A stretch of 64,000 nt of DNA from positions 1 to 64,000 of the IMG/VR virus record IMGVR_UViG_3300034072_000578. One strand, 5' to 3'. This stretch comes from a virus. Shown one piece after another: positions 54,125 through 54,921 of the stretch (position 1 is its first letter; every line of letters begins with the position of its first letter). Made by a program: the position numbers and the translations under genes. The notes beneath the pieces were generated by a model. That model did no database searches, was not told where the DNA came from, and saw only the letters and a list, made by a program, of their open reading frames with translations.

Positions 54125-54152
54125 TTGACAACTTAGAATTACGTGTTATATT
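54125..54152 (+). promoter_or_regulatory. sigma70-type promoter of the Pth2 operon
   Basis: TTGACA...GTGTTATATT. Confidence 0.7.
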
Positions 54153-54166
54153 GAAAGCTCACTACA

Positions 54167-54274
54167 GAAGGAAAGTAGAATGCACTAGCTGCCCCATCGT
54201 CCTCCTTAAAGTAGTCAGTATCTAACCCAAAGCGATTTACTGATTTATTTTAAGATTAAAGGACAATACACATG
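54167..54274 (+). promoter_or_regulatory. leader micro-ORF (M-H-amber-L-P-H-R-P-P-stop) with SD-sequestering stem
   Basis: SD GAAGGA 54167-72, ATG 54180, TAG 54186, TAA 54207; stem 54205-20/54238-54 and GTCCT/AGGAC pairing over the downstream SD. Confidence 0.6.
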
Positions 54275-54598
54275 ACTAAGAACTATTTCGACCATTACAA
54301 TACCCTAGCCAACAACAAAGACGTTTCAAGAGCAGACGTTTATACTCGCTGCATCATCAAGGCCATTCGTGCTAAGAGCGAGGACAAGGTTGGCGTTGCA
54401 ATCGCCCTACTAAAGAAGGCTTTCACTAAGCCCACAAACCCTACTAAGGTCGCCAACGGCGCTCTACAGTATTGGGGCATCAATCACGCTCGCTATGAAG
54501 CCAGCCTGAAATATCGTTATCTAACGAAAGAATATCTAACAGAAGCCGAACAAGGCGCTTGGGAAGTAATTTTCCAAGCCACCAAAGGCGTAGCATAA
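54272..54598 (+). CDS. hypothetical protein coupled to Pth2
   Basis: AFTKPTNPTKVANG motif; TAATG coupling. Confidence 0.7.
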   Translation: MTKNYFDHYNTLANNKDVSRADVYTRCIIKAIRAKSEDKVGVAIALLKKAFTKPTNPTKVANGALQYWGINHARYEASLKYRYLTKEYLTEAEQGAWEVIFQATKGVA

Positions 54599-54921
54599 TG
54601 ACTCCATATTATTGCTATATCTTTGTGCGCCAAGATATAACACCGGAGCAGCAACTAATCCAATTTGGGCATGTTGCTGCTAAGGCAGGCGCTAAGAGTC
54701 CCGATAAGCTTTGGGAGTATGTTCATTTCGTTGGGATCGGAGTTAGAAACGAAAGGGAGCTTCACAAAGCTGCGCTCCTAATGGCTGACAATGACATTCC
54801 TTATTCTACCTTTAATGAAGGGGCCATGGACGATGAGCTAACAGCCGTCGCCTCAGTCCCGGTAAGAGGTCCGACTAGGGAAGTGTTCAAGAATTATAAG
54901 ACGTTACGCTTCGGAAATTGA
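54598..54921 (+). CDS. peptidyl-tRNA hydrolase (Pth2 family)
   Basis: YIFVRQDI....QLIQ.GH.A, V.NE.EL, F.E..MD.ELTAVA..P. Confidence 0.8.
   Translation: MTPYYCYIFVRQDITPEQQLIQFGHVAAKAGAKSPDKLWEYVHFVGIGVRNERELHKAALLMADNDIPYSTFNEGAMDDELTAVASVPVRGPTREVFKNYKTLRFGN

Follow-up and report, generated by a model that had tools for sequence, protein, structure and literature searches.

Positions 1 to 64,000 of the IMG/VR virus record IMGVR_UViG_3300034072_000578 (64,000 nucleotides, nt; hereafter the window) are the opening 64 kb of a phage record of 108,412 bp, which is complete and has direct terminal repeats. At 54125-54921 the window carries a short operon whose first open reading frame (ORF) is a two-codon leader ended by UAG. 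It is followed by two overlapping genes, orf108 and a gene for a protein with the fold of peptidyl-tRNA hydrolase 2 (Pth2). A tRNA gene with its own promoter and CUA in its anticodon loop lies 600 nt upstream of the leader. Together these parts make up a candidate translational switch that would respond to readthrough of UAG. The features, all on the + strand, are as follows.

53498-53574, +: candidate UAG-reading tRNA; its anticodon loop of 8 nt, CCCCUAAU, contains CUA and lacks U33; clean cloverleaf in ARAGORN, anticodon 'ccta'; Rfam tRNA, 57.3 bits
54125-54152, +: leader-operon promoter, sigma-70 type, TTGACA-16 nt-TATATT, extended at the -10 box by TG; 11 of 12 consensus positions
54168-54173, +: Shine-Dalgarno (SD) sequence of the leader ORF, GAAGGA, 6 nt 5' of the ATG
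54180-54188, +: leader up to the gate, ATG CAC TAG (M-H-UAG), assigned from the sequence and the related loci
54189-54209, +: readthrough extension CTG CCC CAT CGT CCT CCT TAA (L-P-H-R-P-P-stop), the proposed stall site; Arg-Pro-Pro codons at 54198-54206, TAA at 54207-54209
54199-54264, +: SD-sequestering hairpin; the 5' arm (54199-54220) starts in the Arg/Pro codons and the 3' arm (54238-54264) holds AGGAC
54259-54263, +: SD of orf108, AAGGA, inside the 3' arm of the hairpin
54272-54598, +: orf108, an all-helical domain and N-terminal partner of the Pth2-like family; homologues lie directly 5' of, or fused to, the Pth2-like domain
54598-54921, +: Pth2-fold protein, 107 amino acids (aa), overlapping orf108 as TAATG (translational coupling)
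54942-54996 (about), +: intrinsic terminator closing the operon, GGGCGGGAATCGC ... GCGATTCCCGCCC then TTTTCGTTTCT, read from the sequence; its inner part (54970-54986) and T-run were flagged by the terminator scan

A first-pass annotation of this stretch had described the promoter, the SD and the series ATG-CAC-TAG-...-CGT-CCT-CCT-TAA, and all of them are present base for base at the positions it gave, as is the TAATG overlap of orf108 with the Pth2-family gene. Comparable promoters precede the leaders of three related loci (L011, L018, L020), and SD-like motifs stand before the leader ATG in related loci too. The stem that had been described, with GTCCT against the AGGAC of the next SD, was returned exactly by RNA folding: GUCCU at 54199-54203 pairs with AGGAC at 54260-54264, and an inner 16-bp stem joins 54205-54220 to 54238-54254. 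Folded alone (54192-54277), the hairpin has a minimum free energy of -18.2 kcal/mol and a z-score (z) of -4.45, with 1 of 200 shuffles equally good, and the orf108 SD has an unpaired probability of 0.22 against a control median of 0.49. When UAG occupies the A site, the stem's first paired base is still 13 nt further on, so that the stem would be expected to stay closed if the ribosome terminates there. Rfam recognised the tRNA alone and found no known RNA family over the leader. We considered the hairpin as a terminator and rejected it: the stem is rich in AU, it has no proper T-run, and the terminator scan did not flag it.

In a single sequence a mini-ORF of two codons is within chance, and the significance of this one comes from related loci. 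We assembled 71 distinct loci, the window included, from metagenome and viral contigs encoding Pth2-like relatives at 27-39% identity; the contigs of the three closest homologues (52-59% identity) are not part of this set. The recurrence on which the first-pass annotation had staked its proposal was found: in dozens of divergent phage loci the same gene pair is preceded by ATG-(N)n-TAG-(N)n-Pro-Pro(-stop) and then a stem that sequesters the SD. Several other studies contain, in their soil, wastewater and surface metagenomes, DNA that differs by 0-4% from window positions 53400-55000. For one relative, 40 of the 52 differences fall within the basic-protein gene at 53670-53972, and the leader and operon are almost unchanged. 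The contigs from other studies are near-identical over the leader, so that no covariation could be obtained from them, and blastn against phage genomes gave matches at the level of tRNA only. Among the sequencing runs that contain this DNA, none is recorded as RNA.

The gate takes two forms. In the first, which is that of the window, an SD and ATG are followed by 1-15 codons, an in-frame stop, and 2-9 codons ending in Pro-Pro, and a hairpin enclosing the next gene's SD has these Pro-Pro codons as its 5' foot. This form is exemplified by M-R-N-K-Q-L-UAG-Q-V-R-G-P-P-stop (L019), ...UAG-S-I-R-A-P-P-stop (L002), M-R-UAG-L-K-P-P-stop (L138) and M-L-UAG-N-I-I-K-S-R-P-P-stop (L044). In the second, the cognate stop lies at codon 3-6 of the Pth2-like ORF itself (L025, L029, L030, L047, L052, L024), which then starts as M-L-UAG (L025), M-H-UAG (L029), M-T-UAG (L030, L052) or M-S-N-E-H-UAG (L047). 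The opening of the directly gated gene in L029 is ATG CAC TAG, as in the window leader.

A subfamily of leaders upstream of the cassette carries two UAG codons, 4-9 codons apart (L006, L016, L023, L026, L027, L031, L033, L037, L040, L043). These often read ...UAG-[VK]-P-D-[TNW]-UAG-..-Y-x-A-R-G-P-P, and the ...Y-x-A-R-G-P-P form is found in L006, L016, L026, L033, L037 and L040. Two in-frame UAGs would make output depend on approximately the square of readthrough efficiency.

The presence of a gate follows that of a suppressor-type tRNA. By ARAGORN, 39 of the 71 loci have such a tRNA no more than a few kb away; 38 of these 39 have a gate, against 8 of the 32 loci that lack the tRNA (Fisher p = 4e-11, a value which, like every Fisher, chi-square or other p-value given here, overstates independence, the loci being from related phages). 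A whole clade of the protein, that of L141, has neither suppressor tRNA nor leader. Moreover, the gating stop is the codon of the local tRNA in 38 of 38 cases: 36 pair TAG with CUA, one pairs TAA with UUA (L011, whose leader is interrupted by TAA) and one pairs TGA with UCA (L024, where M-E-H-TGA is in frame with the gene and the tRNA lies directly upstream). The chance of both exceptions landing on the right loci is about 7e-4. The neighbouring CUA-loop tRNA had been proposed as a participant from the window alone, and this match of stop type to anticodon across loci bears that proposal out.

The same comparison bears on the idea that the leader senses release-factor activity, with shortage or inhibition of release factor 1 (RF1) reported through near-cognate readthrough of UAG, independently of any phage tRNA. 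Any in-frame stop gauges the competition between termination and readthrough, the window tRNA is atypical, and eight gated loci have no suppressor tRNA in the stretch compared. The stop type nevertheless tracks the anticodon of the neighbouring tRNA, TAA/UUA and TGA/UCA included, and gate and tRNA occur together in 38 of 39 loci. TGA is read by release factor 2 (RF2) and not by RF1, so a pure RF1 sensor would not switch to TGA. We therefore regard a release-factor sensor as unlikely.

The leader is also conserved as a reading frame. We searched 599 kb for a strict pattern, in which SD-ATG is followed by 1-25 codons, a stop, 3-10 codons and Pro-Pro, and found 25 matches. Of these, 14 fall in the stretches immediately 5' of the cassette, roughly 1.4% of the sequence; the window's own genome gives two matches in 217 kb, one of which is this leader. 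We then dropped the frame requirement and took every stop of an SD-ATG mini-ORF with CCNCC 9-33 nt downstream in the target zones. In 26 of 31 cases CCNCC shared the frame of the interrupted leader (none in +1, five in +2), as compared with 11, 19 and 14 over the three frames of the background (p = 1e-8). The distance from stop to Pro-Pro is 15 nt in seven loci, the window included, and 21 nt in six. Across loci the Arg is encoded by CGU, CGC, CGA and AGA and the Pro by all four of its codons, and CCG CCC and CCA CCC occur at Pro-Pro, where the likeness to an anti-SD sequence is lost. Because the Arg and Pro codons vary synonymously, down to Pro-Pro codons that no longer resemble an anti-SD, the codon pattern indicates selection on the peptide in addition to that on the RNA. 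The hairpin is likewise retained, on stems of unrelated sequence: z is -3.5 or lower in 8 of 12 loci, pairing between the SD and the Pro-Pro region is seen in 10 of 12, and the median unpaired probability of the SD is 0.20 in leader loci against 0.49 in 300 control genes (p = 3e-4).

These results can be set against a plainer explanation, namely an ordinary two-codon upstream ORF with a constitutive structure that damps translation or stabilises the mRNA, in which Pro-Pro is a mere SD complement, CCUCC. Short ATG-stop ORFs are common by chance, CCUCC pairs GGAGG by nature, and the fold of the window hairpin is unremarkable once a longer context is included. Such an element does not account for CCNCC keeping the leader frame in 26 of 31 cases over a uniform background, for an Arg retained two to three codons before the stall site despite changes among CGN and AGA, or for Pro-Pro persisting as CCG CCC and CCA CCC; and some loci carry the cognate stop inside the gene itself. 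We consider this explanation quite unlikely.

The tRNA of the window is unusual. Set beside an amber suppressor, it has the cloverleaf but not the usual 7-nt loop with U33 and the anticodon CUA. Contigs from two other studies span the gene without gaps, so its 8-nt loop is not an assembly error. An exact search for its anticodon arm in viral contigs gave no match. A pattern search for the 8-nt loop CCCCUAAU in the same kind of contigs gave 66 matches. A single one of them is a tRNA; it lies at 336-412 of an unrelated phage contig (L089), and its body is very different. In this contig a leader starts directly after the tRNA, at 426, as SD-ATG CAA TCA TAG ATT TTT CAT CCA CCT TAG, that is, M-Q-S-UAG-I-F-H-P-P-stop. 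An SD-hiding hairpin follows, and then a gene for 112 aa (508-846), which resembles neither orf108 nor the Pth2-like gene. The downstream gene being unrelated, the gate can control other genes.

The pairing of an identical loop with a leader in two unrelated phages lends indirect support to the view that this tRNA is a working UAG reader and that it would decode UAG as a triplet. The alternative is quadruplet decoding of UAGN. The loop, C-C-[CCUA]-A-U, has the layout of quadruplet decoders among frameshift suppressors, and the +1 frame of the window leader is open through the whole 5' arm: a +1 shift would give C-P-I-V-L-L-K-V-V-S-I up to the TAA at 54223-54225, and the stem would be opened by passage. 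The base after UAG is C in the window and A in L089, however, and not the G that CCUA would pair, and the two leaders share H-(R)-P-P-stop in the zero frame alone, with nothing in common in +1; triplet reading is favoured for these reasons. Reading +1 at the TAG sites of the genome also joined no more long open frames than chance. Quadruplet decoding thus appears very unlikely to us.

Odd-loop tRNAs also lie beside the cassette and its CUA tRNA in three other loci (L029:5431-5504, L045:5450-5523, L027:111-185). Two of them have 8-nt loops, UUUUUAAA (ARAGORN 'ttta') and AGAAUAAU ('aata'), and one has a 6-nt loop reading around CUA.

UAG keeps its standard meaning in this phage. With translation table 11 the coding share of the genome is 90%, and TAG terminates 22 of the 161 genes of a greedy call; a check of the whole genome for long ORFs that open with SD-ATG and then TAG found none. 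For these reasons we conclude that the genetic code is standard and that the leader is the sole evident UAG gate. Of the 26 tRNAs in the genome one is of stop type, that at 53498-53574. Phages with suppressor tRNAs and recoded TAG are known (bioRxiv 10.1101/2021.08.26.457843), and under such a code the leader TAG would be just another codon. The gain from reading TAG as sense is mostly spurious ORFs, and together with the coding share, the TAG-terminated genes and the missing N-terminal TAG in long ORFs this makes a TAG-sense code hard to credit.

Concerning the stall site, the first-pass annotation had invoked RxPP/PP-stop stalling motifs. Related leaders carry RGPP or RAPP; the window's own leader ends in H-R-P-P-stop and not in the canonical R-[A/G]-P-P. 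In published work arrest is robust with RAPP and RGPP and partial with RPPP, and nothing can substitute for the Arg (PMC12992588); the ribosome stalls when the first Pro occupies the P site and the second the A site (PMC12992588, PMC10951233). A C-terminal Pro-Pro in turn impairs termination and provokes tagging by transfer-messenger RNA (PMC3985003). At least 16 related leaders contain RGPP, RAPP, RSPP or RDPP. The window leader lacks the core motif of RAPP/RGPP arrest peptides, R-[A/G]-P-P with its Arg two residues ahead of the P-site Pro, and has, as they do, an SD sequestered in a structure that overlaps the stall site. A stop directly follows Pro-Pro in 14 of the 19 leaders where canonical R[GASD]PP is absent, against 3 of the 17 where it is present (p = 0.001). 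This distribution suggests two stall modes, an elongation arrest and a termination stall, of which the window would use the second.

The products of the operon belong to a two-domain family. No Pfam model matched either protein, and the Pth2 sequence model (PF01981) in particular was unmatched at E <= 0.1 (E, expect value). The earlier assignment of the 107-aa product to the Pth2 family holds at the level of fold. Its model, built from a 43-sequence alignment, has a predicted local distance difference test (pLDDT) score of 95.2, and the top 11 Foldseek matches in the PDB are all Pth2 (1wn2, 2zv3, 3erj, 1q7s and 1xty among them), with template modelling (TM) scores of 0.70-0.81 and probability 1.0. 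A profile of the family matches PDB 24bt_A, 'peptidyl-tRNA hydrolase', at E 2.6e-4, and a phmmer search of the PDB with a single Pth2-like sequence returned nothing. The product is thus modelled with a Pth2 fold, and its relatedness to Pth2 holds at fold level. Like the archaeal and eukaryotic enzyme, it has the alpha/beta fold and, in the profile alignment, the R-x-D and Q-x-x-H motifs and a T-A-[IV] strand. D13, Q22 and H25 are invariant in the Pth2-like family alignment. Unlike Pth2, it has no match to the Pfam PTH2 model, carries Gln-Gln in place of Gly-Lys, and is regularly paired with a helical N-terminal domain that Pth2 does not have.

This helical domain is orf108. Its model has a pLDDT of 92.5, and no significant structural match was found, Foldseek and VIA-align yielding weak helical-bundle matches only (Z < 6); Pfam searches over the orf108 family gave scattered noise only. 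The domain precedes the Pth2-like domain, either fused to it, a form found for example in L020, or as a separate gene, in 25 of 42 loci, and among the best 150 of 482 family representatives, 80 of the 82 that are at least 190 aa long carry the Pth2-like domain at the C-terminus. Because orf108 homologues adjoin or are fused to the Pth2-like domain in relatives, the window operon is a split, translationally coupled form of a two-domain protein. A complex prediction for orf108 and the Pth2-like protein gave a score of 0.15, the mark being 0.32. When viral contigs were scanned with either operon protein singly, nothing was found.

A clade of stand-alone Pth2-like genes, about 36% identical to that of the window, has an ordinary promoter and SD, no leader gate and no suppressor tRNA within 4 kb (L121, L135, L141, L142, L145, L147, L148, L154, L155, L157, L160, L165, L173, L178). 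The orf108 domain is absent from this clade, as checked in L141 and L155. In a 441-kb phage contig (L044:4995-5306) the Pth2-like gene is interrupted midway through the domain by a stop (...HDLL*VAQRL...), which could represent TAG recoding in that jumbo phage or a pseudogene.

Taken together, we think it likely that the element is a translational switch that reports UAG readthrough by means of a readthrough-gated ribosome stall, a reading in which stall and decoding are drawn from the anatomy. Because a UAG-interrupted leader with an Arg-Pro-Pro-stop tail precedes the operon, the operon is probably translated only when the phage's own stop-reading tRNA reads the leader UAG. In the OFF state, transcription from the promoter at 54125 would yield an mRNA whose first ORF is M-H-UAG. 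The release factor would win at UAG, the ribosome would depart approximately 13 nt before the hairpin, and the hairpin would stay closed, with GUCCU masking the AGGAC of the orf108 SD. In the ON state, the tRNA encoded at 53498-53574 would decode UAG as a triplet and the ribosome would go on through L-P-H-R-P-P. It would pause once Pro-Pro has reached the peptidyl-transferase centre, when CCU54204 occupies the P site and TAA the A site. Such a pause would be a slow termination after Pro-Pro, related to RxPP arrest. It would be the paused ribosome, and not mere passage, that opens the SD, by covering the whole anti-SD foot on the 5' arm; orf108 would then be translated, and the Pth2-fold protein after it by TAATG coupling.

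As to the role of the output, it may be argued that the Pth2-like protein is needed only when the suppressor works, because its expression is gated by suppression. Our preferred guess is that a hydrolase of this kind would clear peptidyl- or aminoacyl-tRNA species arising under active suppression, as clean-up or as feedback on the suppressor; the earlier name 'rescue enzyme' is likewise an inference. A more specific version is a self-monitoring recoding device, with the leader as a 'meter' of readthrough and the Pth2-like output acting back on the suppressor tRNA or its products, for example by deacylating that tRNA or clearing the peptidyl-tRNAs due to it. We hold this version to be possible and rather doubtful; if true, feedback would keep readthrough at a fixed level in a host that uses the standard code.

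Besides the relatedness of the loci, five observations weigh against the switch as we propose it. In a context of 136 nt the hairpin has a z of only -1.3, which is not exceptional. CCUCC is also an anti-SD sequence, so that part of its conservation lies at the RNA level. The tRNA of the window, with its 8-nt loop and no U33, might decode poorly or as a quadruplet. The motif before the second stop is not R-[A/G]-P-P, and the Arg position was strict in published mutagenesis. Finally, with the canonical lysine of Gly-Lys absent from the Pth2-like family in the profile alignment, hydrolase activity of the product is not assured.

Other genes lie nearby. An HD hydrolase and a basic protein had been listed by the first-pass annotation as possible members of the same module. 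We rejected both, as neither was matched in the 51 loci compared and they are not conserved neighbours. The HD protein (52889-53464) scores just below the cut-off for Pfam HD_4 and matches phrog_990 (metal-dependent phosphohydrolase) at E 2e-29. HD_4 is a RelA/SpoT-type hydrolase domain, and a small alarmone hydrolase is therefore a possible identity for the protein. A recurrent neighbour is a DUF3307 membrane protein (phrog_2470), encoded in the window shortly after the operon, at 55182-55553; homologues of it (53-56% identity) lie just upstream of the leader in L017 (1803-2129) and L021 (3-152).

A literature search found no description of a natural stop-gated arrest leader or of a suppressor-tRNA/Pth2-like module. 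To our knowledge, this would be the first natural case of stop readthrough as the input of a leader switch, a design otherwise known only from synthetic biology. Papers on large phages report suppressor tRNAs without identifiable targets, for example in XacN1 (PMC5852040; also PMC6102473). The element supplies a conserved cognate target for such tRNAs, which are common in large standard-code phages, and offers a direct test of why phages carry stop-reading tRNAs. It joins RxPP/Pro-Pro-stop stalling, stop-codon suppression and an undescribed two-domain branch of Pth2, and offers a compact natural part for reporting or controlling suppression.

The output half of the element, a stall coupled to an SD hairpin, is already known logic (ermC, secM, mifM, RAPP leaders). 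As in translational attenuation (ermC/ermB, cat, secA, mifM-yidC2), a ribosome stalled on the leader would melt an SD-hiding hairpin, whereas the trigger in those systems is a drug or a secretion defect and not stop readthrough. The in-frame stop has a parallel in the autoregulation of prfB, the gene for RF2, in which an in-frame UGA near the start measures its own decoding, escape is by +1 frameshifting, and the release factor is what is sensed. Both place an in-frame stop near the start to set the expression of a factor tied to decoding of that stop; in the phage, escape would be in the zero frame by a cognate suppressor tRNA and would be coupled to a stall and an SD hairpin. A +1 bypass into the main ORF, as in prfB, is not found here, since the +1 frame of the leader ends at 54225 and is not joined to orf108.

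The closest likeness in peptide is to the RAPP/RGPP arrest peptides (ApdA, ApdP and ApcA, with SecM RAGP and Streptomyces leaders), short upstream ORFs ending in Arg-x-Pro-Pro at which a stalled ribosome is thought to control the downstream gene (PMC7897499, PMC10951233, PMC12992588). Related loci carry exact RGPP or RAPP, often after Ile or Ala, like the GIRAGP of SecM. Those peptides are released when the nascent chain is secreted or inserted into the membrane, whereas here readthrough of an in-frame stop would be the input, and the window leader, with nine residues and its H-R-P-P-stop ending, has no signal or membrane segment. The closest likeness in logic is engineered: as cited in PMC6412442, Liu, Qi, Yanofsky and Arkin (2011) placed a TAG in a leader peptide and so made downstream expression dependent on an amber suppressor. 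To go by that citation, their switch is synthetic and transcriptional (tna leader, Rho), whereas the phage element would be natural, translational and matched to its own tRNA.

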